The notes under the pieces are model-generated. The model had not been told where the DNA came from. It saw only the letters and a program-made list of their open reading frames with translations, and made no database searches. Both the position numbers and the translations under genes were made by a program. Below, piece by piece: positions 24,230-42,448 of a stretch of DNA of 50,443 bases (within the stretch, counting starts at the first letter, position 1; each line of letters starts with the position of its first letter). Source of the stretch: a candidate division WOR-3 bacterium (GTDB taxonomy: Bacteria > Hydrothermota > Tepidihabitantia > B3-TA06); NCBI GenBank assembly GCA_965649265.1, contig CBFGKC010000008.1, forward strand, positions 67,010-117,452, in the 5' to 3' direction.

Positions 24230-25378
24230 ATGACAGCCAAGTTCAGTCTCGAATCGGAGTTCGTCCAATCCCTTAAAAAAGACATTTCCGATTTCATCAA
24301 GGCCGGAACAGAGCAAAAGGACACCGAAAAACGCTTTAACGATCTCGCCTTGCGGTTGTTCGAGTACCAGTTCAACGCGAACGTCCCTTACCAGCGCTTC
24401 TGCGCGAAGCGCGGGGTCGAGCCGGGCCAGATCAAGAAATGGGAGGAGATCCCCGCGGTACCCTCCAACGTTTTCAAGGAGATCCCTCTCGCCACCTTCC
24501 CTGCGGACCAGGCGGTAAAACTCTTCGTAAGCTCGGGCACCACCAGCCCGGACAAGCGCTCCAAGGTCTACATCGACGAAACGGGTCTCGAACTAATGGA
24601 CATTTCGTTTCAGGAATCCATCCAGAACTACTTCTACAAGTCCAGGGACGAAAAGCTGCCCTCCCTGCTCGTTTCACCCTCGCCCGCAGCGTTCCCGAAC
24701 AATCCCTCGCTCATGATCCACCTTTCCATCACGCTCATGAAGGGTCACTACGAAGGCGATCTCGAATACTTCATCACCCGCGAGGGGCTCGACGTTCAGG
24801 GGCTCATAAAAAGGCTGAAAGAGGTCGAGCAAGCGGGCAAGCCGGTATGGATAGGCGGTCCCACATTCGGTTTCGTCCACTTCTACGACTACTGCAAGAG
24901 CCAGGGCATCCGCTTCAAGCTTCCCGAGGGCTCGAGGATCATTGACGCGGCCGGCTACAAGGGTCAGTCCAGAAGCATGCCCAAGGAGGAGTTCCTGGCG
25001 CTCTCGAACGAGATAACGGGCATACCCTACTCCCACCTCATCAACAACTACTCGATGTCCGAGGTGCACGCCATATACGCCGACAACGTCCTCTACAACC
25101 ACGTCAGGGGAATCGAGAAACCGCGTCACAAGTTCATCCCGCCCTGGACGAGGGTGGTGATAACGGACCCCGACACCCTGGAGCCGCTCCCAAAGGGGCA
25201 GGACGGCCTCATCTGCCACTACTGTCTCGCGAATCTCAATTCCGTCATGGCCATTCAGACCGACGACCTCGGTCATACAATAGAAGACGGGTTCGAGATT
25301 CTGGGACGCGCAAAGGGTGCCGAGGCGCGCGGCTGCTCGATTACGGTGGACGAGATAATAGCGGCGCAGGCCAGCTAG
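24230..25378 (+). CDS. luxE: LuxE-family acyl-protein synthetase, copy 1
   Basis: LFEYQ...N..Y, IPAVP...FK, SSGTT P-loop, GGPTF, YSMSE, QTDDLG and C-terminal GRA.GAE.RGCS with the acylated Cys. Family homologue, not a bioluminescence operon. Confidence 0.85.
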   Translation: MTAKFSLESEFVQSLKKDISDFIKAGTEQKDTEKRFNDLALRLFEYQFNANVPYQRFCAKRGVEPGQIKKWEEIPAVPSNVFKEIPLATFPADQAVKLFVSSGTTSPDKRSKVYIDETGLELMDISFQESIQNYFYKSRDEKLPSLLVSPSPAAFPNNPSLMIHLSITLMKGHYEGDLEYFITREGLDVQGLIKRLKEVEQAGKPVWIGGPTFGFVHFYDYCKSQGIRFKLPEGSRIIDAAGYKGQSRSMPKEEFLALSNEITGIPYSHLINNYSMSEVHAIYADNVLYNHVRGIEKPRHKFIPPWTRVVITDPDTLEPLPKGQDGLICHYCLANLNSVMAIQTDDLGHTIEDGFEILGRAKGAEARGCSITVDEIIAAQAS

Positions 25379-25807
25379 CCGCCCACCCGTACCCGTAACA
25401 CACCTCTTGGGAATCGACCTTCGAGAGGTGTTAAGTAGCTAAAAGAGTTAATACACGCAAGGTGTTGAATCGGGAATAGTCATTTCCCGCCCATTGGGAT
25501 ATATCTATATCACACAGGGCATTCTCATACACCGCGCGGAGCTTCGCTTTTTGAAGTCTAAGGAAATACCACAACTCCTTCAAGGGGTTTGTCACGCGGC
25601 TTCAATCCAGGCAATTACCAGGAGGAGAGGGGTAAAACACTTCCTTTGAAGGGGAGTTTCACTCCAAACTCTTCCGGAGCGTTGCGATCTCAGACATCAC
25701 CGTCTTCATTACGAAAGGCTTATAAGCAATCTCTTAGGAAACAATCTCTTTAGAAGGTTTTCCCTGCAGCGGGGGAGGGGGGAAGAGGAAATCGCCGGGG
25801 GCGGCCG

Positions 25808-26488
25808 TCAAGCCTTAGGTTTAGAGGGGTTCTTGTCGTTGCCGTTCGAATCTTGCTTCTTTTCGAGCCGCTTGAACGCCCACTTGAGGCCTTCGGAGAG
25901 GTTGGAGAGCGTCTCTACCTCCGAAAGATCGACGCCGAGATGAACGATTGTCTGGGCAACCTCGGGTCTTATACCCGTTATCACGCACTCGGCTCCGAGC
26001 AGCTTTACCGCGGCAACCGTCTTTAACAAATGGTTGGCCACCGCCGAGTCGACGTTTGGCACGCCGGTGATATCCATTATCGTGATCTTTGACTGCGTGT
26101 TTGCTATGTCGGTCAGAAGTGTTTCGGTCAGGCTCTGCGAGCGGCGAGTGTCCAGGGCGCCTATGAGAGGAAGCACCAGGACCTGATCCCATATCTTGAT
26201 GATGGGCGTCGAGAGCTCCTCTATGGCCTCGCGCTGCTTCTCGATGAGATTAAGCTTGTCTTCAAGTTCGTCCGCGCGCTTGCGGCTCTCGTCGATTGCA
26301 TCTCCCATATCGGCTATGAGAACTTTTACCCCGGTCTCGACGCCGGTCAGCGCATCATAATTCTCCTGGTCGAAGTCGAACTCGATGTCGAACTCTCCGC
26401 AGCCCGCTTTGGACAAGATTTCTTCCAGCTTCTCGAGTCTTGCGTCCAAGTCTCTTATCGGTTTTGTGGCTTCTTTAGCAGGCATCAT
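25808..26488 (-). CDS. RsbR-like STAS protein (type B)
   Basis: RLEKLEEILSKAGCGEF, coiled coil, RsbR STAS motifs; AAGGAG RBS. Confidence 0.9.
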   Translation of the reverse strand: MMPAKEATKPIRDLDARLEKLEEILSKAGCGEFDIEFDFDQENYDALTGVETGVKVLIADMGDAIDESRKRADELEDKLNLIEKQREAIEELSTPIIKIWDQVLVLPLIGALDTRRSQSLTETLLTDIANTQSKITIMDITGVPNVDSAVANHLLKTVAAVKLLGAECVITGIRPEVAQTIVHLGVDLSEVETLSNLSEGLKWAFKRLEKKQDSNGNDKNPSKPKA

Positions 26489-26525
26489 CGACTCCTTCCG
26501 CTTTTTTTAGAACCAAGGTTCATCA

Positions 26526-26930
26526 TTACCCCTTGCTTGCAGCCGCTTTTTTATCCAGTTCCTTCTGTCCCCTTATCCATGCAATGGCTTCTTCCTCGTC
26601 TGAGCAGAACTTGAAATCCTTGCCTCGACCTTGTGCGGACATTACTATCTGGGCAACCATGCGGATAACAGGCTTGGCGCCGAGGAGCGCCATCTTTTTG
26701 AAGTGAACCTGGTCACCTTTTTCCTTCGCGACCTTGCGCTCTTCCTTGCCGACCATTTTCTGAGCTTCGTCGAATAACCAGCCGATGACATAGCGCTGCT
26801 GTTCCGGGGTATATCTAGTGGCTTCCTTATAGAACTGCTCGAGGGACTCCACGTCGAATCTCTGGTAAATCTCTCCGCGTAAGACTCCTTCTTTTTCATC
26901 GTACCATAGCTTGAACTTTTCTGTTGCCAC
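26526..26930 (-). CDS. STAS/SEC14 (SpoIIAA-like) protein, WYDEKEG type
   Basis: FKLWYDEKEGVLRG, GAKPVIRMV, EEEAIAWI. Probable GTG start at 26930, since the ORF's ATGGAGG overlaps the RBS. Confidence 0.82.
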   Translation of the reverse strand: MATEKFKLWYDEKEGVLRGEIYQRFDVESLEQFYKEATRYTPEQQRYVIGWLFDEAQKMVGKEERKVAKEKGDQVHFKKMALLGAKPVIRMVAQIVMSAQGRGKDFKFCSDEEEAIAWIRGQKELDKKAAASKG

Positions 26931-27028
26931 TGTTGCCTCCATGAGGTTTGTTTATTTACCCTCCTGTACGGGGAACAGTTTTCTCCAGCCAGCATTACCC
27001 ACACATACCTGAATCTAAGAAATGCAAT

Positions 27029-27121
27029 ATAATAATGCTTTTCGGGTCTTTGTCAAGGTCTTTTTTCGAGTTAAGGGGTATTTAGAAATAGACTTGACAC
27101 GTAAAAGAATTTATCTACAAT
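27029..27121. promoter_or_regulatory. Back-to-back sigma70 promoters, module 2
   Basis: Minus: TTGACA(27056-51)-16-TATTAT. Plus: TTGACA(27094-99)-16-TACAAT. Confidence 0.72.
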
Positions 27122-27127
27122 GTCAAT

Positions 27128-27251: not shown

Positions 27252-28403
27252 ATGAACGAGAAATACGCCACCAAATCCGAATTCGTAGACACTCTCGCAA
27301 AAGATATAGGAAATTTCATTCAAAACGGGGCAGATCAGCCCGACGCCGAGAACGATAAGGTGTTCAACGATTTGTCCATGAGGCTGTTCGAGTACCAGTA
27401 CAACGCGAACCCTGTCTATCAAAAGTACTGCGACAAACGCGGTGTGAAGCCCGGGATGGTGAGCGTCTGGTCTGATGTGCCAAGTGTCCCTGCGACGGCC
27501 TTCAAGGAAGTCCAGCTGCGCACGTTTCCGGAGGAGGAAACGGTGCTGTTCCTGACCAGCAGCGGAACGACCAACCCCGAGAAGCGTGCGAAGATCAGCT
27601 TCAATGAATCTATGCTTAAGATATACGATCTTGTAGGCATATGCATCAATGACAGGGGTCTGTACAAATCCGCTGACGAGAAGCTCCAGGCCATCGTGCT
27701 CGGACCCGATCCCGAACTGATGCCCAGTGTGGCGATAGGAATGCGTCAACTGAAGATAAGCGTAGACAGGCATTCGAAAGGAAAGCCTGAGTTCTTCATA
27801 AATTCAAAAGGATTCGATTTTGTCGGACTCGTGGAAAGACTGAGGCAAGTGGAGCAATCGGGCGAACCTTGCGTGATTGTCGGCGCAACGTTCGGGTATG
27901 TCCACTTTTTTGACTACTGCAACACTCAGGGTATCTCCTTCAAGCTTCCCGCTGAAAGCCGCGCCATGGACGGAGGAGGCAACAAGGGAAAAGGGAGAGA
28001 AATCTCAAAAGAGGAGTACTGGAGGTTAGGGGAAGAGGTACTAGGAATACCGCGGAGTCATCTTGTCAATCTATATGGCATGACCGAGATGCAGGCTGCA
28101 TACTTCGACAACGTTTTCTACAATCATTGTAAAGGCATTTCGGAGCCTCGCTGCAAGATGATACCCCATTTTGCCAGGGTCGTGGTCGTTGATCCCGATA
28201 CCCTGGAACCCTTGCCTGAGGCCGAGCGGGGTCTCTTGCGTCAGCACAGCGTGGCCAATCTCGTGACTGTACAGGCCGTTCAAACCGATGATATGGGCTT
28301 CGCAACGGGTTCCGGCTTCCAGGTCACCGGGCGCGCCCGGGATGCGGAGTCGCGCGGCTGCTCTATCGCCTACGACGAACTCATCTCGGCTCTGAAAGCG
28401 TAA
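27252..28403 (+). CDS. luxE: LuxE-family acyl-protein synthetase, copy 2
   Basis: TSSGTT, GATFG, DGGGNKGK, YGMTE, QTDDMG, RGCS; ATG 27252 after GGAGG. Confidence 0.85.
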   Translation: MNEKYATKSEFVDTLAKDIGNFIQNGADQPDAENDKVFNDLSMRLFEYQYNANPVYQKYCDKRGVKPGMVSVWSDVPSVPATAFKEVQLRTFPEEETVLFLTSSGTTNPEKRAKISFNESMLKIYDLVGICINDRGLYKSADEKLQAIVLGPDPELMPSVAIGMRQLKISVDRHSKGKPEFFINSKGFDFVGLVERLRQVEQSGEPCVIVGATFGYVHFFDYCNTQGISFKLPAESRAMDGGGNKGKGREISKEEYWRLGEEVLGIPRSHLVNLYGMTEMQAAYFDNVFYNHCKGISEPRCKMIPHFARVVVVDPDTLEPLPEAERGLLRQHSVANLVTVQAVQTDDMGFATGSGFQVTGRARDAESRGCSIAYDELISALKA

Positions 28404-28470
28404 CCAGTAACACACCCGTCCCCCTTCGGGGGATTCTTATATGCAGCTTAAACCACAAGGAAATAACACG

Positions 28471-28570
28471 CCCGTCCCCCTGCGGGGCAGGGTCTGACCC
28501 TTGAGGTAAGTCTTTACCTCATAGGTCATTCTCATAATCATACGGAGCTTCGCTCCGAAATCTAAGGAAG
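28471..28570. repeat. REP-like palindromic composite element
   Basis: CCCCTGCGGGG, CAGGGTC, TGACC.TTGAGGTAA-gtct-TTACCTCATAGGTCA hairpin, GGAGC-ttc-GCTCC hairpin, TCTAAGGAA; near-identical copy at 30765-30850. Confidence 0.7.
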
Positions 28571-28824
28571 TACCCTCAGGGCAGGGTCATTCACATTTCC
28601 GCCTGGGCCTTCGGCCCAATCAAAAGACGTAACGCACTATCCATTTAGATATGCAGGGGGGTATACAATCCAAAGTCTATGGAAATTCGTGAATGGGGGA
28701 GGGGGGGTGAATTAAACGCCTTGTGACGGCATTGCCAAAATCTCTGTGCAAGTTTTCTCTTGAGGGATGTTCCTTGCGGAATCTTCAATTTGTCTTCAGG
28801 CCGGGTCCAAAGCCGGGGACTGTC

Positions 28825-29226
28825 TTACGCCGGGCTTGCGCCTTTTTTGTCCTTTTCTTTCTCCGCTCTCAACCAGGTCAGGCCTTCCTCCTCGGTTTCG
28901 CAGAAGAAGAAATCCTTTTTCCTTCCTATGGCGGTTATGACCACGGTGTAGACCATGCGGATTACCGGTTTAGCGCCAATGGCTACAACCTTTTTGAAGT
29001 GCAGATCCTTGACCTTATCCTTTGCTATCTTGCGCGCCTCCTTATCGGGCATCTTTTGAGCGTCGTCGTACATCCGACCGATAAAAAAGCGCTGCTGTTC
29101 CGGGGTGTACTTGGAGACTTCTGCAAAGTACTGTTCGAGGGTTTCTACATCGAAGGTGTCATAGATTTCTGTCATAAGCACGCCCTCTTTCTCATCATAC
29201 CAGAGTTTAAACTTGTCTTTCGCCAT
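28825..29226 (-). CDS. STAS/SEC14 (SpoIIAA-like) protein, WYDEKEG type
   Basis: FKLWYDEKEGVL, GAKPVIRMV, ETEEEGLTWL; GAGGAG RBS. Confidence 0.82.
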   Translation of the reverse strand: MAKDKFKLWYDEKEGVLMTEIYDTFDVETLEQYFAEVSKYTPEQQRFFIGRMYDDAQKMPDKEARKIAKDKVKDLHFKKVVAIGAKPVIRMVYTVVITAIGRKKDFFFCETEEEGLTWLRAEKEKDKKGASPA

Positions 29227-29325: not shown

Positions 29326-29418
29326 ATAGTAACATTTTTTGGGTCTTTGTCAAGGGCTTTTTCAAAGTTAAGGGCTAACAAAAATTGAACTTGACACATA
29401 AAGAAAATTATCTAAAAT
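29326..29418. promoter_or_regulatory. Back-to-back sigma70 promoters, module 3
   Basis: Minus: TTGACA(29353-48)-16-TACTAT. Plus: TTGACA(29391-96)-16-TAAAAT. Confidence 0.72.
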
Positions 29419-29549: not shown

Positions 29550-30695
29550 ATGAACGAGAAATACGAATCCAAATCGGAGTTCGTGGTGTCCCTCGGAAAC
29601 GAAATAATGGATTTCATCAGGAATGGAGCGGCCGGGCCCGATAGCGAAATGATTTTTAACGATTTGTCCATGAGACTCTTCGAGTACCAGTACAATGCGA
29701 ACATTGTCTACCGGAAGTATTGCGACAAAAAGGGTGTAAAGCCCGGGATGGTAAAAGCGTGGATGGATGTTCCTGCCGTCCCTGCCGTGGCTTTCAAGGA
29801 AGTCGAACTTCGCACGATTTCCGATGAAGAAACCGTACAGGTGCTGACGAGCAGCGGGACGTCCAACCCCGAGAAGCGCGCAAGGATCAGTCTTAACGAA
29901 ACGCAGGTCAAGATACGCGAATTGAACGGTGAATATCTCAAAGATCGCGGATATTACAAATCCCCGGACGAGAAGATCCATGCCTTGCTCCTGGCGCCGG
30001 ATCCGGCACTCATGCCCAGCGCGGCGGCCGGGATGAGTCAGATAAAAATTCTTATAGAAGGGCACTCTATCGGGAATCCGGAATTCTTCATTAGTCCCAA
30101 GGGATTCGATTTTAGCGCACTCGCGGAAAGACTGAAGCTTGCGGAGAAGACCGGCGAACCCGTGTTCATTGCGGGGGCCACCTTCGCGTACGTCCACTTT
30201 TTTGACTTCTGCCAGGCCCAGAACATCACCTTCAAGCTTCCAGCGGGAAGCCGCGCCATGGACGGCGGCGGCAACAAGGGAAAAGGAAGGGAACTCTCAA
30301 AGGAAGATTATCGGATGCTGGCCGAAAAGATCCTGGGCATACCCCAGAGTCACATGATCAATCACTACGGCTTGATAGAGATGGAAGCATCTTACGTAGA
30401 CAACGCCTTCTACAATCACGTGAGAGGCATTTCCGAGCCGCGCGCCAAGATGATCCCGCATTTTGCAAGAGTCGTTGTCGTCGATCCTGATACACTGGTC
30501 CCTCTCGCAAAGGGCGAGAAAGGCCTGCTGCGGCAGCACAGCGTGGCCAATCTTACCACCGTTCAGGCCGTTCTTACCGACGACATGGGCTACGAGATAG
30601 GTTCAGGCTTCGAGATCACGGGACGCGCCCGGGATGCGGAATCGCGCGGCTGCTCTATAGCCTACGACGAACTGATCTCGGCGCAAAAATCGTAA
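29550..30695 (+). CDS. luxE: LuxE-family acyl-protein synthetase, copy 3
   Basis: TSSGTS, GATFA, DGGGNKGK, YGLIE, LTDDMG, RGCS; ATG 29550 after AAGGAGG. Confidence 0.85.
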   Translation: MNEKYESKSEFVVSLGNEIMDFIRNGAAGPDSEMIFNDLSMRLFEYQYNANIVYRKYCDKKGVKPGMVKAWMDVPAVPAVAFKEVELRTISDEETVQVLTSSGTSNPEKRARISLNETQVKIRELNGEYLKDRGYYKSPDEKIHALLLAPDPALMPSAAAGMSQIKILIEGHSIGNPEFFISPKGFDFSALAERLKLAEKTGEPVFIAGATFAYVHFFDFCQAQNITFKLPAGSRAMDGGGNKGKGRELSKEDYRMLAEKILGIPQSHMINHYGLIEMEASYVDNAFYNHVRGISEPRAKMIPHFARVVVVDPDTLVPLAKGEKGLLRQHSVANLTTVQAVLTDDMGYEIGSGFEITGRARDAESRGCSIAYDELISAQKS

Positions 30696-30699
30696 TCCT

Positions 30700-31112
30700 T
30701 ACCCCTGCGGGGCATTTCCATCGGCAGCTTTAGATTAGAGGAAATAACACCCGTACCCAAAGGGCAGGGTCTGACCTATGAGGTAAGTCTTTACCTCATA
30801 GGTCATTCTCATAATCATACGAAGCTTCGCTCCGAAATCTAAGGAAATAACACATCCGTACCCCTGCGGGGCAGGGTCCGGCTCTTAAGGCGAGTGTTTA
30901 CCTTGCAGGTCAGGGTCCGCACCTTGTAATAAATCTTCATCAATATAGGGCGTTTTACGGGAGGCCTTAATCTAAGGAAATGCCGAGAGGGGAGAGGTGT
31001 TACGGGTGTGTTACGGGTGTGTTACGGGTGTGTTACGGGTGACCCTTGGAATGAGTCTTCATTCCATAGGTCAGGGTCTGACCCTTGGAATGAGTCTTCA
31101 TTCCATAGGTCA
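30700..31112. repeat. Cluster of REP-like hairpins and an 11-bp tandem repeat
   Basis: Perfect 15-bp-arm palindrome at 30772-30805; degenerate 39-bp units at 30872-30950; (GTGTTACGGGT)x4 at 30997-31040; two hairpins TGACCCTTGGAATGA-gtct-TCATTCCATAGGTCA at 31040-31073 and 31079-31112. Confidence 0.8.
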
Positions 31113-31334
31113 CTCTCATTTCCGCCTGGGCCTTCGGCCCAATCAAAAGATGTAATACACCATCCATTGAGAGATACGGACCAATGTCTATGGAAATTCG
31201 TGAATGGGGGAGGGGGGGTAATTAAACGCCTTGTGACGGCATTGCCTAAATCTCTATACAAGTTTTCTCTTGAGGGATGTCCCTTGCGGATTCTTCAATT
31301 TGTCTTCGGGCCGGGTCTAAAGTCAGGGGCTGTC

Positions 31335-31736
31335 TTATGCCGGGCTTGCGCCTTTTTTGTCCTTTTCTTTCTCCGCCCTTATCCAGGCCAGGGCTTCCTC
31401 CTCGGTTTCGAAGTATTTGTTGTCTTTTCCCTGTCCCACTGCGGTCATCACGATGTTGGATACCATTCGGATTACCGGTTTGGCGCCGAGGTTAGCTATT
31501 ATTTTGAAATGAGCGGATTTAAATTTCTCCTTGGCAACCCTGCGCGCCTCCTTGTCGGGCATTTTCTGGGCATCGCAGAATACCCAACCGATGATATAGC
31601 GCTGCTGCTCAGGGGTGAACTTAGAAACCTCATTAAAGTACTCTTCGAGTGTTTCCACATCGAATTTCTTGTAGATCTCTGACCGAAGAACCCCTTCCTT
31701 CTCATCGTACCATAGTTTGAAAGTCTTTTCTTCCAT
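31335..31736 (-). CDS. STAS/SEC14 (SpoIIAA-like) protein, WYDEKEG type
   Basis: FKLWYDEKEGVLRS, GAKPVIRMV, FETEEEALAWI; ATG 31736 after AGGAGG; own TTGACA-16-TATCAT promoter at 31868-31841. Confidence 0.82.
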   Translation of the reverse strand: MEEKTFKLWYDEKEGVLRSEIYKKFDVETLEEYFNEVSKFTPEQQRYIIGWVFCDAQKMPDKEARRVAKEKFKSAHFKIIANLGAKPVIRMVSNIVMTAVGQGKDNKYFETEEEALAWIRAEKEKDKKGASPA

Positions 31737-31978
31737 TGTTGATTCCTCCTGGAAATTCATACCTATTCACCCTGCTTATATATGGAAACCACTTTACCGG
31801 TGCGATGTTACCCACGCTTATTTTAATTATAAAGTATAGAATGATAGTACTTTTCAGGTCTTTGTCAAGGGTCTTTACGGGTCAGGGCTCTTTTGAATGG
31901 ACTCGGCAGCAAAAATGTCCCGCAAGAATATCGGCAAACAACGTTTGAGAACGGGTATTTTATGCGGCAGGTACTGTC

Positions 31979-33322: not shown

Positions 33323-34474
33323 ATGAGCGAGAAATACGCTACCAAATCGGAATTCGTACAATCCCTGGCGAATGACATTCAGGATTTCATGAAAAACGGG
33401 ACGCAACAATCAGATGCTACTAATGAGAAGAAGTTCAACGAGTTGTCCATGAGGCTTTTCGAGTACCAGTACAACGCTAACCCGGTCTATAAGAAATACT
33501 GCGACAAACGCGGGGTGAAGCCGGGCATGGTAAGCGAGTGGACCGATGTTCCTTCGGTTCCCGCCACGGCGTTCAAGGAGGTTGAATTCAGCACTTTTTC
33601 AAAGGAAGAAACGGTGCTTGTTTTCACGAGCAGCGGGACAACCAATCCCGAGAAGCGCTCGAGGGTCAGTTATAACGAAACGATGCTGGCGATATATGAT
33701 ATGTCCCTTCAATATCTGCAGGGCAGGTGCATGTACAAATCCCCTGACGAAAAGCTCCATGCGCTCATGCTCGGGCCCGATCCCGAGTTGATGCCTTCTG
33801 CGGCGATGGGAATGCGCAATCTGGTGATGCTGGCGCAGGGGCACTCAGTCGGTAAGCCTGAGTTTTTCATCACTCCTACGGGATTCGATTTCGCCTCGCT
33901 CGTTGAAAGACTGAAGAAAGCGGAGCAGTCGGGCGAACCCGTGATGATTGCAGGGGCCACCTCCGGTTACGTCTACTTATACGATTTTTGCCAGGCGCAG
34001 GGCATCTCATTCAAGCTTCCCGAGGGGAGCCGGGCGTTTGACGGCGGAGGCAACAAGGGTAAAGGGAGAGAGATTCCCAAAGACGAGTACTACAAGCTTG
34101 GAGAAAAGATACTGGGCATACCCCAGCATCATCTGGTCAACATGTACGGCTCGACCGAGGTGCAGGCGGGATACTTTGACAACGTTCTCTACAATCACTA
34201 CAAGGGCGTTTCCGAGCCGCGCTACAAGGTTATCCCTCACTTTGCCAGGGTCGTCGTAGTAAATCCCGATACCCTTGAGCCTGTGCCTAAAGGCGAGCGG
34301 GGGCTGCTGCGACATCACACCGTTATCAATCTCGTGACCGTTCAGGCCGTTCTTACCGATGACGTAGGCTTCGAGATAGGCTCCGGCCTCGAGGTCACAG
34401 GCCGCGCTCAGGGTTCGGAAACGCGCGGCTGCTCTATCGCCTACGACGAACTCATCTCCGCGCAACAGGCATAG
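33323..34474 (+). CDS. luxE: LuxE-family acyl-protein synthetase, copy 4
   Basis: TSSGTT, GATSG, DGGGNKGK, YGSTE, LTDDVG, RGCS; ATG 33323 after AAGGAGG. Confidence 0.85.
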   Translation: MSEKYATKSEFVQSLANDIQDFMKNGTQQSDATNEKKFNELSMRLFEYQYNANPVYKKYCDKRGVKPGMVSEWTDVPSVPATAFKEVEFSTFSKEETVLVFTSSGTTNPEKRSRVSYNETMLAIYDMSLQYLQGRCMYKSPDEKLHALMLGPDPELMPSAAMGMRNLVMLAQGHSVGKPEFFITPTGFDFASLVERLKKAEQSGEPVMIAGATSGYVYLYDFCQAQGISFKLPEGSRAFDGGGNKGKGREIPKDEYYKLGEKILGIPQHHLVNMYGSTEVQAGYFDNVLYNHYKGVSEPRYKVIPHFARVVVVNPDTLEPVPKGERGLLRHHTVINLVTVQAVLTDDVGFEIGSGLEVTGRAQGSETRGCSIAYDELISAQQA

Positions 34475-34483
34475 GAGGCTACT

Positions 34484-35911
34484 GTGTCCGAAGTCACTAC
34501 ACTTCCTGCGTTCTACCTGCCCGGGCTGAAAGAATCCGATTTCGCTCAGTTCGTTCCGCTCGAGTTCGGCTCGAACGGAATCAAGGTCAAGATGCACGCG
34601 CCCGTTCTCACGCCGGAACTCTTGAAGAAGACCATTGCCTCGCTGCGAAAGGCGCGCGAGGAGTACCTTGTTAAAAAACCCGTGTTCGAGATAGCCGAGA
34701 CCATAGGCAAGGTTCTCGAGCTGTGGAGCGACCCTCAATACCCTCCCCGCAAGCTCGCCGAAAAGCTCCTGCCCGTCATCACCGGTTTTTCCTCACCCAT
34801 GATCCAGCTCACCCTGGGGGGTATCATGTCCAGGTACTCGCCCAAAAACCTCAAGCTTCTCCTCGAGGATGAGTTCGAGGACCCGCGCGTTCTGGATGAG
34901 TTCCGGCCCCGCAAAAGAGCCGGCGGGTTCATAAGAGCCCACGGCCCCGCCCTCACCACCGTCATCCTTGCGGGTAATGCCCCGGGCATATCCATGGAGA
35001 ACACCATCCTCGGTCTTTTAATGAAATCGGCCGTCCTTGCAAAATCCTCGTCCGATGAGCCGCTGTTTGCCGCGCTTTTCGCCCAGTCCATCGCGGAGAT
35101 AGACCCCATGCTCGCGCAGTGCGTGGCCATGCTCCTGTGGAAGGGCGGCAGCGAGGAGATAGAGCGGCTGGCGTTCGGCCAGTCCGACGCCGTCATCGTA
35201 TACGGTTCCGAGCACTCGGTCAATGAGGTTCGCAAAAGAGTCCCGCCGGGTGTCAGGCTCGTCACCTACGGCCACAAGCTGAGCTTCGGCGTTATAGGCC
35301 GCGAAGCTCTCTCCGCGGCCAAAGTAAAGGAAACGGCCGAGTACGCGGCAGTCAACGTATCAATGATGGATCAGCAGGGCTGCGTATCCCCGCACGTCTT
35401 CTACGTCGAAGAGGGGGGAGAGGCCTCCGCAAGGGAATTCGCAAGGTTTCTGGCACTCGAAATGGAGTCCTTCAACGTGCAGGTTCCGAGAGGCCAGATT
35501 TCGGGAGCCGAAGCCGCGCACATCAACTCGCTTCGTGGCTCGTACGAATTCCGCGAACTCACCAGTGACGACGTGAATCTCTTTACAAGCTCGCCCGGCA
35601 CCGACTGGACGGTCATATACGAGAAGGACCCCGCCTTCGTGCCCTCATGCCTGAACCGGACGATCCGCGTGAAGCCGGTCGATGACGCGATGGACATCGT
35701 CCGCCTTGTCACGCCCATAAAGCAGTATTTGCAGACGATGGGCGCGGCGCTTCCGCGGGAAAGGCTCATGCCTCTTGCCGAGAAGATGGCCGGGTTGGGC
35801 ATAGACCGCATTCCGAGGCTCGGAGCAATGGCAGGTCCCTCGCTCCTCTGGCGACACGACGGCCGTTTTAACCTTCTCGATCTGATTCGCTGGACCGGCA
35901 TCGAAGAGTAA
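34484..35911 (+). CDS. luxC: LuxC-family acyl-CoA/acyl-protein reductase, copy 1
   Basis: AGNAPG, K.SS.EP, WKGG, YGS..SV, YGHKLSFG, catalytic DQQGCVSP, HDG; GTG start after AGGAGG, 9 nt after luxE4. Confidence 0.88.
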   Translation: MSEVTTLPAFYLPGLKESDFAQFVPLEFGSNGIKVKMHAPVLTPELLKKTIASLRKAREEYLVKKPVFEIAETIGKVLELWSDPQYPPRKLAEKLLPVITGFSSPMIQLTLGGIMSRYSPKNLKLLLEDEFEDPRVLDEFRPRKRAGGFIRAHGPALTTVILAGNAPGISMENTILGLLMKSAVLAKSSSDEPLFAALFAQSIAEIDPMLAQCVAMLLWKGGSEEIERLAFGQSDAVIVYGSEHSVNEVRKRVPPGVRLVTYGHKLSFGVIGREALSAAKVKETAEYAAVNVSMMDQQGCVSPHVFYVEEGGEASAREFARFLALEMESFNVQVPRGQISGAEAAHINSLRGSYEFRELTSDDVNLFTSSPGTDWTVIYEKDPAFVPSCLNRTIRVKPVDDAMDIVRLVTPIKQYLQTMGAALPRERLMPLAEKMAGLGIDRIPRLGAMAGPSLLWRHDGRFNLLDLIRWTGIEE

Positions 35912-36143
35912 CCCGTCCACCCGTACCCCTGCGGGGCATTTCCATCGGCAGCTTTAAATAAGAGGAAATAACACCCCGTAACACCCCCCCTCCGGGGATC
36001 ATCTGTCAGGATGACATCAATCTTATTTACACGTTGGAACTCTAAGAGGTTTGGATTTGCGTAAAAAGGAAATCCCCCTCCGGGGGGAGGGGGGCATCAA
36101 AAGTCTTAATATCCCTGACTGTTACTTCCTGCGGCTCAGAGTA

Positions 36144-36809
36144 TCAGGAACGCAGCTGGGACTTGGGTCTCTGATCGGCTGACTCGGAATCCTCCAGCCG
36201 CCTGAAGGCCCACTTTAAACCCTCGGAGAGGTTTGAGAGGGTCTCGACCTCCGAAAGATCCACTCCGAGATGGACTATTGTCTGGGCTACCTCGGGTCTT
36301 ATACCCGTTATCACGCACTCGGCTCCGAGAAGCTTTACGGCCGCAACCGTCTTTAACAAATGGTTGGCCACCGCCGAGTCAACGTTAGGCACACCGGTGA
36401 TGTCGAGTATCGTTACTTTTGACTGCGTGCCGGAGATGTCGGTCAGAAGCGTTTCAGTAAGGCTCTGCGAGCGGCGGGTGTCAAGGGTGCCTATGAGAGG
36501 GAGGACAAGAACCTGCTCCCATATTTTAAGAATCGGCGTGGAGAGCTCCTCTATGGCCTGGCGTTGCTTCTCGATTAATTCGAGCTTCTCCGCAAGCTCT
36601 TCCGCGCGTTTGCGGCTCTCGTCGATCGTGTCTCCCATATCGGTTATGAGGACTTGTATTCCGGTTTCAACGCCCGTCAGGGCATCAGGATTCTCCTCAT
36701 CAAGTTCGATCTCCACGTTGAATTCGCCGCACGCCGCCTGGGAGAGAATCTCTTCCATCCTTGCGAGTCTTTCATCCAGATCCCTTATTCCTATGGATTC
36801 TTTTGGCAT
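36144..36809 (-). CDS. RsbR-like STAS protein (type B)
   Basis: RLARMEEILSQAACGEF, coiled coil, RsbR STAS motifs; close paralogue of 25808-26488. Confidence 0.9.
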   Translation of the reverse strand: MPKESIGIRDLDERLARMEEILSQAACGEFNVEIELDEENPDALTGVETGIQVLITDMGDTIDESRKRAEELAEKLELIEKQRQAIEELSTPILKIWEQVLVLPLIGTLDTRRSQSLTETLLTDISGTQSKVTILDITGVPNVDSAVANHLLKTVAAVKLLGAECVITGIRPEVAQTIVHLGVDLSEVETLSNLSEGLKWAFRRLEDSESADQRPKSQLRS

Positions 36810-36835: not shown

Positions 36836-37243
36836 TCACGCCTTGCTTGCCGCGGATGTTTCATCCTTGTTCTTTTGTTCTTTTAACCAGGCAACACCTT
36901 CGTTTTCGCTATCGAAGAACCTGAGGCTTTTTCCTTTTCCCACGGCGGTCAGAACTATCTTGGCAACCATGCGAAGACCCGGTTTTGCGCCCCAGATAGC
37001 GATATTACCCCACTTTATTACCTTTCCCTTCTCCGCCGCGACCTTACGGGTCTCCTTATCTACGAGTTTTTGAGCATCGTCGTTCACAAAGCAAATAACA
37101 TAACGTTGCTGTTCTTCGGGATAAGTTGCCATGTCGGAAAAGAACTGTGCGGTTGCCTCCGGGTCGTATCTTTCAAGGACATTAACGTGCAGGAACCCTT
37201 CTTTTTCATCGAACCAGTGTTGAAACTTTTTTCTGTCTATCAT
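36836..37243 (-). CDS. STAS/SEC14 (SpoIIAA-like) protein, WFDEKEG type
   Basis: FQHWFDEKEGFL, WGAKPGLRMV, FFDSENEGVAWL; AGGAGG RBS. Confidence 0.82.
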   Translation of the reverse strand: MIDRKKFQHWFDEKEGFLHVNVLERYDPEATAQFFSDMATYPEEQQRYVICFVNDDAQKLVDKETRKVAAEKGKVIKWGNIAIWGAKPGLRMVAKIVLTAVGKGKSLRFFDSENEGVAWLKEQKNKDETSAASKA

Positions 37244-37343: not shown

Positions 37344-37437
37344 ATACTAATATTTTTTAGGTTTTTGTCAAGCGTCTTTTTACGGATTATGGTCTTTTGA
37401 AAAATAGACTTGACACATAAAAGAAATTTTCTAAAAT
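37344..37437. promoter_or_regulatory. Back-to-back sigma70 promoters, module 5
   Basis: Minus: TTGACA(37371-66)-16-TAGTAT. Plus: TTGACA(37410-15)-16-TAAAAT. Confidence 0.72.
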
Positions 37438-37576: not shown

Positions 37577-38722
37577 ATGAGTGCGAAATACGCTTCCGAT
37601 TCTGAATTTGTTCATTCCCTTGCAAAGGATATAGAGGTTTTTATAAAAGCCGGTCCAGAACAGCCCGATACGGATAAGAAGTACAACGAATTGTCCCTGA
37701 GGCTGTTCGAGTACCAGTACAACACAAACATTCCATATCAGAAGTTCTGCGATAAACGTGGTGTTAAACCGGGCACAATAGAATCCTGGGAAAATGTTCC
37801 CGTAGTCACAACCTCCGCATTCAAGGAAGTGACATTTAGAACCTTCCCGGAGGAAGAGACGGTAATGCTTTTTACAAGCAGCGGAACAGGCAATCCGGAC
37901 AAACGTTCAAAGGTCTACATGAATGAGATGGGCCTCAAGTTATTCGATTTGTCCACTCAAGCCGCAATAGGCGCCGGTCTTTACAACTCCCCGGATGAGA
38001 AGTTGCATGCATTCCTTCTTGGACCCGATCCGGAACTGACACCCGAGGCAGCCATAGTTGTACGTGGTTTGATACAGGTGGTTCAGGGTCATTACATCGG
38101 TAAACCGGAATTCTTCGTCAAGCCCACCGGATTTGATTTCCCGGGTCTTGTATCCAGACTCAAACAAGCCGAAGATTCGGGTGAACCGGTTGTGCTGGCC
38201 GGAGCGACGTTCGGATACGTTCACTTCTTCGACTACTGCCAGTCCCAGGGTCTTTCTTTCAAGCTGCCCGAGGGCAGCCGCTCTTTTGACGGCGGAGGTA
38301 ACAAGGGCAAGTCGAGAGAAATCACGAGAGACGAGTACTGCCAGCTGGGAGAAAAGATACTGGGCATACCCCCGTATCTCATGGTCAACTGTTACGGAAT
38401 GGTCGAGGTACCCCTGCCTTTCATGGATAACGTTTTCTACAGTCACAAAAGAGGTCTTTCCGACTCGCGCTACAAGATGATTCCTCACTGGGGAAAAACC
38501 CTTGTTGTCGATCCCGATACGCTCGTGCCTTTGCCGAAGGGCGAGCAAGGTTTGCTATGCCATCACTGCCTGGCCAATCTTGTATCCGCTCAGGCCGTTC
38601 AGACGGATGACATAGGTGTTGCAGTCGGTTCCGGGTTTAACATCCTGGGCCGCGCCAAAGGCTCGGAGGCACGCGGCTGCTCCATCGCCGTGGACGAACT
38701 CATCTCCGCGCAAAAATCGTAA
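37577..38722 (+). CDS. luxE: LuxE-family acyl-protein synthetase, copy 5
   Basis: TSSGTG, GATFG, DGGGNKGK, YGMVE, QTDDIG, RGCS; AAGGAGG RBS. Confidence 0.85.
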   Translation: MSAKYASDSEFVHSLAKDIEVFIKAGPEQPDTDKKYNELSLRLFEYQYNTNIPYQKFCDKRGVKPGTIESWENVPVVTTSAFKEVTFRTFPEEETVMLFTSSGTGNPDKRSKVYMNEMGLKLFDLSTQAAIGAGLYNSPDEKLHAFLLGPDPELTPEAAIVVRGLIQVVQGHYIGKPEFFVKPTGFDFPGLVSRLKQAEDSGEPVVLAGATFGYVHFFDYCQSQGLSFKLPEGSRSFDGGGNKGKSREITRDEYCQLGEKILGIPPYLMVNCYGMVEVPLPFMDNVFYSHKRGLSDSRYKMIPHWGKTLVVDPDTLVPLPKGEQGLLCHHCLANLVSAQAVQTDDIGVAVGSGFNILGRAKGSEARGCSIAVDELISAQKS

Positions 38723-38906: not shown

Positions 38907-39572
38907 TCAAGAACGAGCCGTGATCGTTGGTTTGGAACCGCCTGCCTCGGACTGATCGAGCCGATTGAACGCCCACTTGAGGCCCTCCGAAAGGTTTGCA
39001 AGCGTCTCGACGTCCGAAAGATCCACGCCGAGGTGAATGATGGTCTGGGCCACGTCCGGCCTTATTCCCGTTATCACGCACTCGGCGCCCAGAAGCTTGA
39101 CCGCCGTTACCGTCTTGATGAGGTGGTTGGCCACCGCCGAATCCACCGTCGGTACGCCCGTGATATCGAGTATCGCCACTCTTGTCTGAGTCGCGGCTAC
39201 ATCGGTCAACAGCGACTCCGTGAGTCTCTGTGAACGCCGCGTGTCTATGGCTCCTATGAGTGGCAGAACGAGCACTCGCTCCCAAATCTTTATTATCGGC
39301 GTCGAAAGCTCCTCTATCGACCGTCGCTGCTGCTCAATGAGATCGAGCTTCTGTTTCTGCTCGTATACAAGCTGCTCTGCGAGAAAGTTGACCGAGTACT
39401 CCACCGGTGTAAAATCATCCTCCTCTGAATCGTCCACCTTCAGGCGCGCACCGTACTCCCCGGTCGCTATCGAAGACATGATATCGATTACCCTGTTAAG
39501 GCGAGTCTTCGGAATCGCGATCATTTCCCTGCTTTGTTTCTCCTGCGGATTCATAGGTTCCTCCTCCGGCAT
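38907..39572 (-). CDS. RsbR-like STAS protein (type A)
   Basis: RLNRVIDIMSSIATGEY..EDDFTPVE N-domain shared with 21560-22258; RsbR STAS motifs; TAATG coupling to the upstream gene. Confidence 0.88.
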   Translation of the reverse strand: MPEEEPMNPQEKQSREMIAIPKTRLNRVIDIMSSIATGEYGARLKVDDSEEDDFTPVEYSVNFLAEQLVYEQKQKLDLIEQQRRSIEELSTPIIKIWERVLVLPLIGAIDTRRSQRLTESLLTDVAATQTRVAILDITGVPTVDSAVANHLIKTVTAVKLLGAECVITGIRPDVAQTIIHLGVDLSDVETLANLSEGLKWAFNRLDQSEAGGSKPTITARS

Positions 39573-39928
39573 TATTTACCCTCGTTAAGCCAGGTTCGCG
39601 CTTCAGGCTCGGTCTTCACGAACCTCGATTCATCTATACCCGGCAGCATTTTCAATATGAAGCCTCCAAGAATTCGCAGCTTGGTAGAGGCGCCGATAAT
39701 CGCCAGTTTGGACATGACGAATTTGCTTCCCATAACGCGAAGGGTTTCCCTGGATTCGGGCGGAACGTCAGTGAGATATTTGACATCGATCGCTACCTTG
39801 ATTTTATCGCCGGGCCTTACGAAATTGCTCAATTTAGCTATCAAATCCTCGACCTGTTCGGGAACCAGGTCTCCTTCAAGGTTCAAAAAGACTTTGTCCG
39901 GGGGCTCGAATAGGATCATTTCTTTCAA
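39572..39928 (-). CDS. STAS/SEC14 (SpoIIAA-like) protein, FEPP type
   Basis: FEPPDKVFLNLEG, VAIDV..LTDVPPESRE, FVKTEPEARTWL; TTG start after AGGAGG; TTGACA-16-TATAAT promoter at 40130-40103. Confidence 0.82.
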   Translation of the reverse strand: MKEMILFEPPDKVFLNLEGDLVPEQVEDLIAKLSNFVRPGDKIKVAIDVKYLTDVPPESRETLRVMGSKFVMSKLAIIGASTKLRILGGFILKMLPGIDESRFVKTEPEARTWLNEGK

Positions 39929-40605: not shown

Positions 40606-40992
40606 TTACCTTTGCGCAGATTCTGCTTTTTTGTCAGCCTTCAGCCACGCAATGGCGTCGGTCTCCTTGTCAAAGAAGCCGACAATGTCTTTCTTTCCTA
40701 TCGCGACCAGGAGGATCTTTGAAACCATCCGGAGTGCAGGCTTTGCACCCCATACTGCAATCTTGCCCCAGTCGAACGTGACAGCTTCGTTGCGTAAAAG
40801 CTTGCGCGTCTCCTTGTCCGGTATTTCCTGTGCAGGCTCCGCAACGAATGCAAGAATCCTGCGCGTTTTTTCGATACCGAATTTCTCCCTGATATCCCTG
40901 AAAAAACTGTGAACGGCCGGAACATCGTACCTTTCCAAAACCCCAATGCGGAGAATGCCCTCTTTCTCGTCATACTCGGCGCTGTATTTCAT
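40606..40992 (-). CDS. STAS/SEC14 (SpoIIAA-like) protein, YDEKEG type
   Basis: EYDEKEGILR, WGAKPALRMV, FFDKETDAIAWL; ATG 40992 after GGAGG. Confidence 0.82.
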   Translation of the reverse strand: MKYSAEYDEKEGILRIGVLERYDVPAVHSFFRDIREKFGIEKTRRILAFVAEPAQEIPDKETRKLLRNEAVTFDWGKIAVWGAKPALRMVSKILLVAIGKKDIVGFFDKETDAIAWLKADKKAESAQR

Positions 40993-41046
40993 AGTGTCCT
41001 CCATGTATTTCCATATCTTTTTTTGCCCTCCGCCGAGAATTTCGAT

Positions 41047-41200
41047 AGGATATCTTTATTTTCGTGCTTGTCAACATCCCTTCGCGTCTTTTTACGGTCT
41101 AAGAAACCTGGAAATATCACCTTAAAAATATTGCCGACAGTATAATTTTATCAGAGTTATCTTTAATTTATATTGACAAGCCTTAATTGCTAACTACACT
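41047..41200. promoter_or_regulatory. Back-to-back sigma70 promoters, module 6
   Basis: Minus: TTGACA(41074-69)-16-TATCCT. Plus: TTGACA(41173-78)-16-TACACT. Confidence 0.62.
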
Positions 41201-41305
41201 TTTATTGTATGTGAGGAGGGGGAAGTCTTCTCATTCAGAAGACTCCCTGGCGGATTTGCGGTGTATTCTGAAAAGGGCTAAGGCAAAAAACGCCAAGGAG
41301 GATTC

Positions 41306-42448
41306 ATGTCCGATAAGTACTCCAACGATTCTGAGTTCGTGATTGATCTGAGAAAGGGTATATGGGATTTCATTGAGGGCGGCGCCGTTCAACCCGGAAC
41401 GGACGACAAGTTCAACGATTTAGCTCTGCGCCTCTTCGAATACCAGTTTTCGAAGAACATCCCATATCAGAAATTCTGTGTGAAACGCGGAGTAACACCG
41501 GACAAGATAGATTCGTGGGAGCGGATTCCTGCGGTGCCCGTCAACGCCTTTAAGGAGGTGGCGCTCTGCACGTTTGCGCCCGAGGATGCCGACAAGGTAT
41601 TCCTCTCTTCGGGCACCACCGATCCCGCGAAACGCTCCAAGGTGTACGTCGACAAGGAGGGGCTTCGCTTCCTTGACCTCTCCTATATACGCTCTGTCGA
41701 GGCCTATGTCTTTCCGCGTTCGGAGAAGCTTCGCTCGCTTCTCATGTTCCCGGGACCGGACGTGTTTCCTCCCGACTCCGTTTTCGTCTACGGCCCCATG
41801 AAGACGATTGCAGGTCACTACCTTGAGCCCCTCGAGTTTTTCGTAACCAAGGAAGGCTTTAACCTGCCCGGTCTCATCGAGCGCATGAAGCGCGCGGAGG
41901 CCGAGCAGGAGCCCGTGCTCGTCATGGGCGCAACCTTCGGCTGGGTTCATGTGTTCGACTTCTGCAAAGCCCAGGGCATCAAGTTCAAGCTTGCCGAGGG
42001 CTCGCGATTCCTCGACGGCGGCGGCTACAAGGGCAAGTCGCGCGAGATGACCAAGGAAGAGTACTTCAAACTCGCCGGGGAGATATCGGGTATACATCCC
42101 GCGTACCTGTTGAACAGCTACGGGATGAGTGAGAGCCAGAGCATCTTCCCCGACAATGCCTTGTACAATTATTTGAACGGCAACGAATCGGAGCCGCGCT
42201 ACAAGATGACGCCCGCATGGGCGAGGGTGGTCATGGTCGATCCCGAGACGCTCGATCCCCTGCCCAAGGGCGAGAAGGGTCTCGTGAAGATATACAGCCT
42301 TTCCAACATCCATACAGTCATGGCCCTTCAGACCGACGACATCGGCCACGAGATAGGCTCCGGTTTCGAGGTGGTGGGACGCGCCATGGGTGCCGAATCC
42401 CGTGGCTGCTCCATCGCCATGGATGAGATTGTCAACGCTCAAAAGTAA
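41306..42448 (+). CDS. luxE: LuxE-family acyl-protein synthetase, copy 6
   Basis: SSGTT, GATFG, DGGGYKGK, YGMSE, QTDDIG, RGCS; AAGGAGG RBS. Confidence 0.85.
   Translation: MSDKYSNDSEFVIDLRKGIWDFIEGGAVQPGTDDKFNDLALRLFEYQFSKNIPYQKFCVKRGVTPDKIDSWERIPAVPVNAFKEVALCTFAPEDADKVFLSSGTTDPAKRSKVYVDKEGLRFLDLSYIRSVEAYVFPRSEKLRSLLMFPGPDVFPPDSVFVYGPMKTIAGHYLEPLEFFVTKEGFNLPGLIERMKRAEAEQEPVLVMGATFGWVHVFDFCKAQGIKFKLAEGSRFLDGGGYKGKSREMTKEEYFKLAGEISGIHPAYLLNSYGMSESQSIFPDNALYNYLNGNESEPRYKMTPAWARVVMVDPETLDPLPKGEKGLVKIYSLSNIHTVMALQTDDIGHEIGSGFEVVGRAMGAESRGCSIAMDEIVNAQK

Follow-up and report, generated by a model that had tools for sequence, protein, structure and literature searches.

Six LuxE-family paralogues in a stressosome-type gene set of a WOR-3 bacterium differ most in segments that may line the acyl pocket

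Why does a single bacterial genome hold six LuxE-family genes and two LuxC genes? To our knowledge, LuxE is known almost solely as the myristate-activating part of bacterial light production. We analyzed a stretch of 50,443 nucleotides (the window) from a candidate division WOR-3 bacterium (assembly GCA_965649265.1, contig CBFGKC010000008.1, positions 67,010 to 117,452), in which a repeated gene set spans 21.5 to 43.9 kb. Its plus strand carries six LuxE-family genes (E1 to E6) and two LuxC genes, which directly follow E4 and E6; interspersed on the minus strand are ten small SpoIIAA-like/DUF7793 genes and five RsbR/YtvA-like STAS genes. Profile searches of the whole genome (2.74 Mb in 27 contigs, 96% complete) returned exactly six LuxE and two strong LuxC matches, all inside the window, and one weak aldehyde dehydrogenase (ALDH)-like match to LuxC (27.7 bits) elsewhere. 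The statement of an initial annotation that there are only two LuxC reductases is thus borne out, and six LuxE proteins face two LuxC proteins. On balance, we lean slightly toward the view that all six copies function as acyl-protein synthetases, with acyl pockets that would have diverged after duplication and with the two LuxC proteins serving the whole set. The genes concerned are as follows.

24230..25378, plus strand: LuxE E1, 382 aa, clade A of the LuxE tree; 89.4 bits on PF04443
27240..28403 (likely start 27252, at a conserved ribosome-binding site), plus strand: LuxE E2, open reading frame (ORF) of 387 aa, clade B; 86.8 bits on PF04443
29508..30695 (likely start 29550), plus strand: LuxE E3, ORF of 395 aa, clade B; 81.3 bits on PF04443
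33278..34474 (likely start 33323), plus strand: LuxE E4, ORF of 398 aa, clade B, followed by LuxC1; 83.9 bits on PF04443
37577..38722, plus strand: LuxE E5, 381 aa, clade B, the copy modelled with AF2 (mean confidence 90.3); 74.6 bits on PF04443
41306..42448, plus strand: LuxE E6, 380 aa, clade A, followed by LuxC2; 74.8 bits on PF04443
34484..35911, plus strand: LuxC1, acyl-thioester reductase, 475 aa, 65% identical to LuxC2; 311.5 bits on PF05893
42461..43894, plus strand: LuxC2, acyl-thioester reductase, 477 aa; 318.6 bits on PF05893, matching 7xc6_A at 1.9e-20

The longest ORFs of E2, E3 and E4 probably begin too early, since a conserved ribosome-binding site and the orthologues point to 27252, 29550 and 33323 as the true starts. 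All six LuxE proteins exceed the PF04443 cut-off of 24.9 bits (74.6 to 89.4 bits), with matches running from profile positions 22-38 to 387-388 of 391, and the scores of LuxC1 and LuxC2 on PF05893 compare with a cut-off of 21. The P-loop SSGT is kept in all six LuxE copies. In the alignment, the equivalents of Lys238, Arg355 and Cys364 of P. phosphoreum LuxE are likewise invariant (K244, R360 and C369 in E1), so that each copy has the Lys/Arg pair and the cysteine of the C-terminal GC motif; none has the ANL C-terminal subdomain (ORFs of 380 to 398 aa). In the P. phosphoreum enzyme, as described in an excerpt of PMC9157457, K238A is dead, R355A shows 10% activity, and Cys364, within the motif TRxxKGCxLS, is the acylated residue. 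The LuxE family profile matched the LuxE chain 7xc6_E at E = 1.5e-62, and the cysteine of the LuxC DQQGC motif aligned to index 285 of 7xc6_A, which corresponds to the catalytic Cys296. The three copies tested against the luminescence LuxE equivalog NF052244 stayed far below its cut-off of 550 (73.5 to 83.6 bits), as did LuxC1 and LuxC2 with respect to the NCBIfam LuxC equivalog cut-off of 750 (83.5 and 102.9 bits). Neither a luciferase nor a LuxD family turned up in a scan of 42 ORFs of the window, a search that did not extend to other parts of the genome. Judged by profile score, the window LuxE proteins are family members and not equivalogs of the lux-operon enzyme.

Where, then, do the six copies differ? 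Their pairwise identity is 47.8 to 71.1% over 379 ungapped columns (mean pairwise column identity, 0.56). The initial annotation had proposed three hypervariable segments on a near-invariant scaffold, and all 18 peptides that it quoted were found in the translations of the genes concerned. We compared the mean pairwise identity of each sliding window along the alignment with 5000 column shuffles. Segment 1 (E1 residues 118-135) had an identity of 0.248, the lowest of 362 sliding windows, and none of the 5000 shuffles reached a value as low; segment 2 (E1 157-171) had an identity of 0.205, the lowest of 366, which was reached by a single shuffle among 5000. The YGxxE block taken as segment 3 (E1 274-282) scored 0.459, ranked 76 of 371 and was matched by 5000 of 5000 shuffles. 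Hypervariability was therefore confirmed for the first two segments, which are the least conserved windows, and not for the third, which is unexceptional as a block; its variation is limited to the residue before Y (N, L, H, M, C and S) and to positions E+1 to E+4 and E+6. Segment 1, described as lying directly after SSGT, in fact begins 15 residues past it. None of the 106 columns that are invariant among the six LuxE copies falls within E1 residues 111-140 or 157-172. The most variable positions are mostly non-polar, with few charged residues and with size swings from Gly to Phe or Tyr; from E1 to E6, E5 position 127 reads F/G/G/L/T/Y, 134 reads Y/G/G/C/G/Y, 161 reads L/G/G/G/V/F and 281 reads I/A/S/G/P/I. 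To judge from the residues involved, such non-polar size swings suit a cavity or core better than an exposed face. The segments were delimited in the six genes as follows.

24578..24634, plus strand: segment 1 of E1, helix after the P-loop strand
27606..27662, plus strand: segment 1 of E2
29898..29954, plus strand: segment 1 of E3
33677..33733, plus strand: segment 1 of E4
37925..37981, plus strand: segment 1 of E5, residues 117-135, a helix over 117-135 in the model
41654..41710, plus strand: segment 1 of E6
24674..24742, plus strand: segment 2 of E1, proline-rich loop and next helix, the A4-equivalent region
27702..27767, plus strand: segment 2 of E2
29994..30059, plus strand: segment 2 of E3
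33773..33838, plus strand: segment 2 of E4
38021..38086, plus strand: segment 2 of E5, residues 149-170, with loop 151-160 (model confidence ~67) and helix 161-169
41747..41812, plus strand: segment 2 of E6
25046..25081, plus strand: segment 3 of E1, from the residue before YGxxE to E+6
28071..28106, plus strand: segment 3 of E2
30363..30398, plus strand: segment 3 of E3
34142..34177, plus strand: segment 3 of E4
38390..38425, plus strand: segment 3 of E5, residues 272-283, of which 272 and 281 align to PaaK1 I236 and P245
42116..42151, plus strand: segment 3 of E6

Is this divergence under constraint? In a LuxE tree, clade A, with E1, E6 and genes of the relatives G002, G003, G006, G009 and L001, splits from clade B, in which E5 groups with genes of G001, G002 and G003 and which further contains a genus-level expansion comprising E2, E3 and E4. 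E3 pairs with G001_10074 and E2 with G001_13315. Across seven orthologue pairs, the rate of nonsynonymous substitution (dN) in segments 1 and 2 taken together was 0.01-0.23 versus 0.06-0.18 in the rest of the protein, whereas in eight same-genome paralogue pairs it was 0.46-1.01 versus 0.15-0.35, which means that the segments changed 3- to 4-fold faster. Six of the orthologue pairs are 79-90% identical outside the segments and 78-100% identical within them, and in five of these six the dN of segments 1 and 2 did not exceed that of the rest, the exception being G009/G006 (0.07 versus 0.06). In the seventh pair, E5/G001_94, with 72% identity in the rest, segments 1, 2 and 3 were 72%, 76% and 55% identical (dN of 0.23 versus 0.18). 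E3 and its G001 orthologue share 18 of 18 residues in segment 1 and 16 of 17 in segment 2 at 87% identity elsewhere, so that 34 of 35 segment residues are identical, versus 17 of 35 between E2 and E3; E5 and its G002 orthologue likewise share 18 of 18 and 16 of 17, at 80% elsewhere. Among E2, E3 and E4, by comparison, identity is 28-39% in segment 1 and 53-59% in segment 2 versus 73-75% in the rest. Database orthologues are 80-85% identical outside the segments and 75-100% within them. These comparisons support a segment divergence that is paralogue-specific and constrained, and not the outcome of drift.

The wider family points the same way. For 124 distant LuxE proteins of 340-420 aa (taken from 149 new proteins among 150 listed), column entropy averaged 2.35 bits overall, 2.67 in segment 1, 2.46 in segment 2 and 1.30 in segment 3. 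The most variable parts of these proteins are residues 1-35 and 286-302, and the pattern among the window paralogues is thus not a general softness of the family. Each column was also given a group-specificity score, obtained by subtracting its identity between 11 groups from its conservation within the 9 multi-member ones. The segments (bordered in E5 numbering at 117-135, 149-170 and 272-283) hold 52 of the 292 scored columns and 27 of the 45 top ones; the hypergeometric value of 1.4e-12 is only indicative, since we placed the borders with the data already in view and since columns are not independent of one another. Further high-scoring columns lie at E5 80-100, 108, 115, 176, 188, 206, 249, 255, 267, 268, 287, 304 and 336.

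Where the segments sit in the fold was assessed on E5, for which AF2, given an alignment of 84 sequences, produced a model with a mean predicted local distance difference test score (pLDDT) of 90.3 and a predicted template-modelling score (pTM) of 0.89. In this model, segment 1 is the helix 117-135 directly past the strand that follows the P-loop, segment 2 consists of the loop 151-160 (confidence ~67, as for the P-loop and the Lys loop) and the helix 161-169, and segment 3 falls on the hairpin 269-284. The best Foldseek matches were PaaK1 and PaaK2 with phenylacetyl adenylate, 2y4n (E = 5.8e-15, TMq 0.63) and 2y4o. In our hidden Markov model (HMM) alignment, the PaaK1 chain index equals the residue number plus 5, which was checked on the P-loop residues Ser94, Thr96 and Thr97 (given in a portion of PMC8388817). 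PaaK1 I236 thereby aligns to E5 272, which reads N, L, H, M, C and S in E1 to E6, and P245 aligns to E5 281, which reads I, A, S, G, P and I; both residues contact the phenyl ring, according to an excerpt of PMC4619459. The first-half alignment ends at PaaK1 H133, paired with E5 H144, and an ungapped extension from there would put the PaaK1 136-147 loop (Y136, F141, A147) on E5 147-158, the proline-rich loop that opens segment 2. Segment 1 aligns to PaaK1 106-125. The proposal that all three are pocket segments fits the alignment to ligand contacts at two positions of segment 3, and may extend to segment 2 through the ungapped extension and to segment 1 through analogy.

In the adenylation domains of nonribosomal peptide synthetases (NRPSs), substrate choice is set in the A4 region and around the A5 motif YGxTE. 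We take R218 of firefly luciferase to lie in the helix after the P-loop, and its remaining substrate-site residues in the A4 and A5 regions; Phe184 of 4-chlorobenzoate ligase presumably lies in the helix after the P-loop as well. Luciferase R218 is near the active site, where R218K alters the use of luciferin analogues, and further substrate-site residues are H245, F247, T251, T343, S347 and A348 (available part of PMC7555964). In the 7XC6 complex, only LuxE residues 33-91, 290-338 and 348-357 are resolved beside LuxC, as stated in an excerpt of PMC9157457; none of our segments overlaps these parts, and the segments are therefore not the known LuxC interface.

How might six such enzymes work together with two reductases? 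Each LuxE would activate a carboxylic acid with ATP to the acyl-AMP, load the acyl group onto its own C-terminal cysteine and pass it to LuxC, which would release the aldehyde by reduction. Tandem duplication of a back-to-back SpoIIAA-like/LuxE module would have produced the six copies, after which replacements may have gathered in segment 1, in segment 2 (the counterpart of ANL motif A4) and at the positions flanking YGxxE in segment 3 (the counterpart of A5), to be held later by purifying selection. Related adenylate-forming enzymes have their acyl or aryl pocket lined at these places, and the copies would therefore most likely differ in the acid accepted, be it in the length of its chain, in branching or in a ring. 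Common to all would be the ATP site, the catalytic Lys, Arg and Cys, and the LuxC-facing parts, so that two LuxC proteins could serve all six. We infer, in short, that segment residues line the pocket, that substrates differ between copies and that LuxC is shared.

Each of the six LuxE genes is divergently paired with a SpoIIAA-like gene, a setting that the initial annotation overlooked. The minus-strand genes of the array are the following.

23515..24072, minus strand: SpoIIAA-like/DUF7793 gene, divergent partner of E1; Pfam and own profile
26526..26942, minus strand: SpoIIAA-like gene, divergent partner of E2; Pfam and own profile
28825..29226, minus strand: SpoIIAA-like gene, divergent partner of E3; own profile only, without a Pfam match
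31335-31760, 31979-32383 and 32598-32996, minus strand: three SpoIIAA-like genes in tandem, the last being the divergent partner of E4
36836..37243, minus strand: SpoIIAA-like gene, divergent partner of E5; modelled, with a STAS fold
40606..41004, minus strand: SpoIIAA-like gene, divergent partner of E6; Pfam and own profile
21560-22381, 22245-22733 and 22838-23497, minus strand: RsbR-like STAS gene, SpoIIAA-like gene and RsbR-like STAS gene
25808..26488, minus strand: RsbR-like STAS gene downstream of the partner gene of E2
36144..36809, minus strand: RsbR-like STAS gene downstream of the partner gene of E5
38907-39572 and 39572-39928, minus strand: RsbR-like STAS gene and SpoIIAA-like gene

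The LuxE/SpoIIAA-like pairing is kept in the relatives G001, G002, G003, G006 and G009. Pairwise identities of the LuxE copies correlate with those of their neighbors (r = 0.92, reached by 6 of 720 permutations), and the modules were therefore duplicated as units. In G002, G003, G006 and G009, genes for an RsbT-like kinase, an RsbS-like STAS protein, an RsbR-like STAS protein and a SpoIIAA-like protein lie on one strand, with LuxE and then LuxC on the opposite strand; the full RsbT, RsbS, RsbR-like and SpoIIAA-like set thus stands beside LuxE in these four genomes. The module predates the array. LuxE was found in 8 of the 10 relatives within the family (match counts of 3, 2, 2 and 1 (four genomes), plus G010, with 2 fragmentary matches) and was absent from all 50 genomes that were searched elsewhere in the class. 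The records of the relatives are labelled WOR-3, TA06 or Stahlbacteria; at greater distance, LuxE-LuxC pairs occur without STAS genes, in records that carry the labels archaeon, Gemmatimonadota and Verrucomicrobia.

In the window's own genome, the RsbS-like and RsbT-like genes are located on contig C3, beside three more SpoIIAA-like genes and ~2-5 kb downstream of genes for a PAS histidine kinase and a sigma-54 activator. At this locus (L018, 2085-12537), the RsbS/RsbT-like genes are followed by two Pfam-less proteins and a DUF4388-containing response regulator, which may belong to the output; the gene in the RsbR position (9126-9692) proved not to be RsbR-like. Among the five RsbR-like proteins encoded in the window, the STAS domain is nearly the same throughout, and the N-terminal part, of ~70 residues, varies. 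A sixth RsbR-like gene lies on contig C14 (L028, 294-2236) in a module consisting of a SpoIIAA-like gene, a GNAT acetyltransferase gene and the RsbR-like STAS gene (own profile, 4.2e-105), where another acyl-transfer enzyme occupies the slot of the synthetase in the LuxE modules. By gene content, the LuxE array belongs to a stressosome-type system (RsbR/RsbS/RsbT).

Genome-wide, the SpoIIAA-like profile matched 23 times; 10 of these matches lie in the window, and the other 13 are not beside LuxE. Seven matches form a tandem array on contig C2 (L026, 5057-7848) with no LuxE nearby, and 6 of the 23 matches contain an in-match stop codon, four of these in the C2 array. The model of the E5 partner has a STAS fold; its Foldseek search returned only generic STAS folds (TMq mostly 0.5-0.6 among STAS-type matches), and a homologue gave only hypothetical or DUF7793 clusters in the ESM Atlas. 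A literature search yielded no paper linking the stressosome with LuxE, its matches concerning lux reporters.

Several of these observations weigh against acyl-pocket divergence. Segment 3 is not hypervariable as a block, and the borders used for the group-specific columns were set after the fact. The dN/dS check that had been suggested, made here by segment, agreed with constraint on segments 1 and 2 in orthologues but gave values below 1 for these segments wherever they could be computed; since dS, the synonymous rate, was near saturation (~1-2) or not computable (4 of 15 pairs), we make no claim of positive selection. The pocket is assigned by homology at 15-16% identity to PaaK, within which the mapping of segment 2, extended without gaps past PaaK1 H133, may be off by a few residues, and the link of segment 1 to the pocket is drawn from analogy with other ANL enzymes. 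The LuxC-facing parts of LuxE are not significantly more conserved (0.62 versus 0.58, p = 0.29) and thus provide no argument for a shared LuxC; that two LuxC proteins are shared by six LuxE proteins is nonetheless plausible. The co-duplication of LuxE with its partner gene, finally, leaves a pattern that partner specificity could yield as well.

This last point leads to the main rival explanation, which the SpoIIAA-like pairing inside a stressosome-type system opens: the segments might set partner-protein specificity, each LuxE recognizing its own SpoIIAA-like protein or RsbR-like N-terminal domain, so that six channels are insulated from each other. The pairing of all six genes, its retention in five relatives, the correlated identities and the variable N-terminal parts of the RsbR-like paralogues all speak for such recognition, and orthologue conservation with paralogue divergence fits interface co-evolution equally well. 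We nevertheless consider it unlikely: correlated identities are also given by simple co-duplication, the mainly non-polar, Gly-to-aromatic and rarely charged variable positions look more like a cavity or core than an exposed interface, segment 3 positions align to ligand-contacting residues of PaaK1, and a family with 13 of its 23 matches away from LuxE is not a dedicated LuxE partner. The large-to-small swaps on the neighboring helices of segments 1 and 2 could also be compensatory repacking that leaves function unchanged, the copies being redundant or differing in regulation or dosage. The size swaps are indeed coupled (at E5 127, 134 and 161, E1 and E6 have large residues and clade B mostly Gly), copy number varies among close strains, and the near-identical promoter of E1 to E5 and the similar leader of E2 to E5 mean that regulation is not obviously diversified. 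Yet neutral change is unlikely to recur across several duplications, including the young E2/E3/E4, and then to freeze in orthologues; the segment 3 positions aligned to ligand contacts have changed too, and six intact copies with all catalytic residues kept argue for distinct roles, which makes repacking quite improbable in our view. As to weakly constrained, fast-drifting loops with no functional meaning, we give them hardly any credence. The lower model confidence of part of segment 2 (E5 151-160) and the slightly raised family-wide entropy of segments 1 and 2 would fit, but six orthologue pairs keep the segments as well as or nearly as well as the rest, the truly variable residues of the family are not those that differ most among the window paralogues, and the observed minima were reached by 0 and 1 of the shuffles; the shuffles, the dN pattern and the family entropy largely refute drift.

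Pocket divergence, which we favor, might also be set in a wider frame, although we regard this extension as rather doubtful. The six LuxE genes with their paired SpoIIAA-like and RsbR-like genes could be the input channels of one stressosome, forming a carboxylic-acid sensor array based on covalent chemistry. Every LuxE would have an organic acid of its own, which it would adenylate and then carry as an acyl group on its cysteine. An RsbR-like paralogue would sense either this acylated LuxE or an acyl group handed on to the paired STAS-fold protein, and would feed the single RsbS/RsbT core; the diverged segments would set the ligand of each channel. Acyl transfer as a common stressosome input fits with the presence of a GNAT gene between the SpoIIAA-like and RsbR-like genes of the C14 module.

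The intergenic regions and flanks of the array have features of their own. A near-identical sigma-70-type promoter (TTGACAC..TAAAAT) precedes E1 to E5 at 24062-24100, 27083-27121, 29380-29418, 33157-33195 and 37399-37437, and a mirrored promoter-like box lies upstream of SpoIIAA-like genes on the minus strand at 27029-27058, 29326-29355, 31841-31870, 33101-33130 and 37344-37373, so that the intergenic regions look like conserved divergent promoter pairs. A sigma-54-type pattern gave no signal (19 matches versus 20.9 expected), and a look through public sequencing runs listed no RNA run that holds the sequence. E2 to E5 also have a conserved 5' leader of ~120 nt, and the block CAGC-GGTGTTTC, exact or variant, occurs in 13 of 14 aligned leaders from five genomes and one metagenome-assembled genome (MAG) contig, being absent in L020. 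Rfam, scanned over the whole window at E up to 1, found no family on the conserved leaders; RNAalifold folded 4 leaders into one long hairpin with only 2 covarying pairs and gave no consensus structure for 14 leaders from six genomes.

In related strains, contigs that are 90-99% alike fuse the end of E3 to LuxC1, omitting three SpoIIAA-like genes and E4 (30688-34501), and the E3 orthologue of the same-genus genome G001 adjoins LuxC; copy number and order of the array thus vary between close strains. Related-strain contigs, again 90-99% alike, also join a SpoIIAA-like gene to the E5 module (32422-36682). Downstream of E2 and E3 there is a small intergenic repeat (28457-28572, 30734-30912 and 31069-31156), ~90 nt in length, the inner core of which resembles a hairpin; its sites attract high-depth contigs from other metagenomes, and it may be a mobile or repetitive extragenic palindromic (REP)-like element. 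To the left of the array lie genes for a pyruvate phosphate dikinase and a membrane protein, and to its right a tRNA (43962-44033) and an integrase. The tRNA abuts this tyrosine integrase (43962-45452), and a low-GC stretch follows (46000-50443, 0.38-0.41); an integrated element probably borders the array on this side.

The locus offers a natural series of six close LuxE proteins whose differences are focused on a few dozen positions, and the orthologues reveal which of these positions are held fixed. Such a series can serve as a map for finding the determinants of substrate choice in a little-studied branch of adenylate-forming enzymes, and may help in producing aldehydes from acids of choice. 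It has long been asked what stressosomes sense; here, in the gene set of a candidate phylum, the LuxE family becomes a testable candidate for that input.

Among known systems, the LuxE-LuxC complex of P. phosphoreum (7XC6; an excerpt of PMC9157457) belongs to the same Pfam families, with a LuxE that lacks the ANL C-terminal subdomain, and equivalents of its LuxE Lys238, Arg355 and Cys364 and of LuxC Cys296 are present in the window copies, whereas its salt-bridge residue Arg354 is Gly in them. As in luminous bacteria, luxC directly follows luxE, here for E4 and E6; the window differs from those lux genes in falling far below the NCBIfam equivalog cut-offs, in having six LuxE to two LuxC and in being embedded in a STAS/stressosome gene set. 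The Bacillus subtilis-type stressosome resembles the present system in its multiple RsbR-like proteins, whose STAS domains are conserved and whose N-terminal parts vary (here five in the window and one on C14), in a single RsbS-like/RsbT-like pair, here elsewhere in the genome, and, through the relatives, in RsbT/RsbS/RsbR-like genes, there back to back with LuxE-LuxC. The RsbR-like N-terminal part here, in contrast, has ~70-90 residues and is not a globin, and an extra SpoIIAA-like/DUF7793 gene heads the operon. NRPS adenylation domains and firefly luciferase (PMC7555964, in part), although distant relatives with other acceptor chemistry, have specificity regions that would correspond to segments 2, 3 and 1. 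The best structural matches of the E5 model, PaaK1 and PaaK2 of Burkholderia cenocepacia (2Y4N, 2Y4O), form a pair and not a set of six, are only 15-16% identical, have a C-terminal subdomain and make a CoA thioester. As paralogues that differ in aryl-pocket extent and substrate range (according to an excerpt of PMC4498308), with I236 and P245 aligned to variable positions of segment 3, they provide a precedent for paralogues diverged in the pocket.

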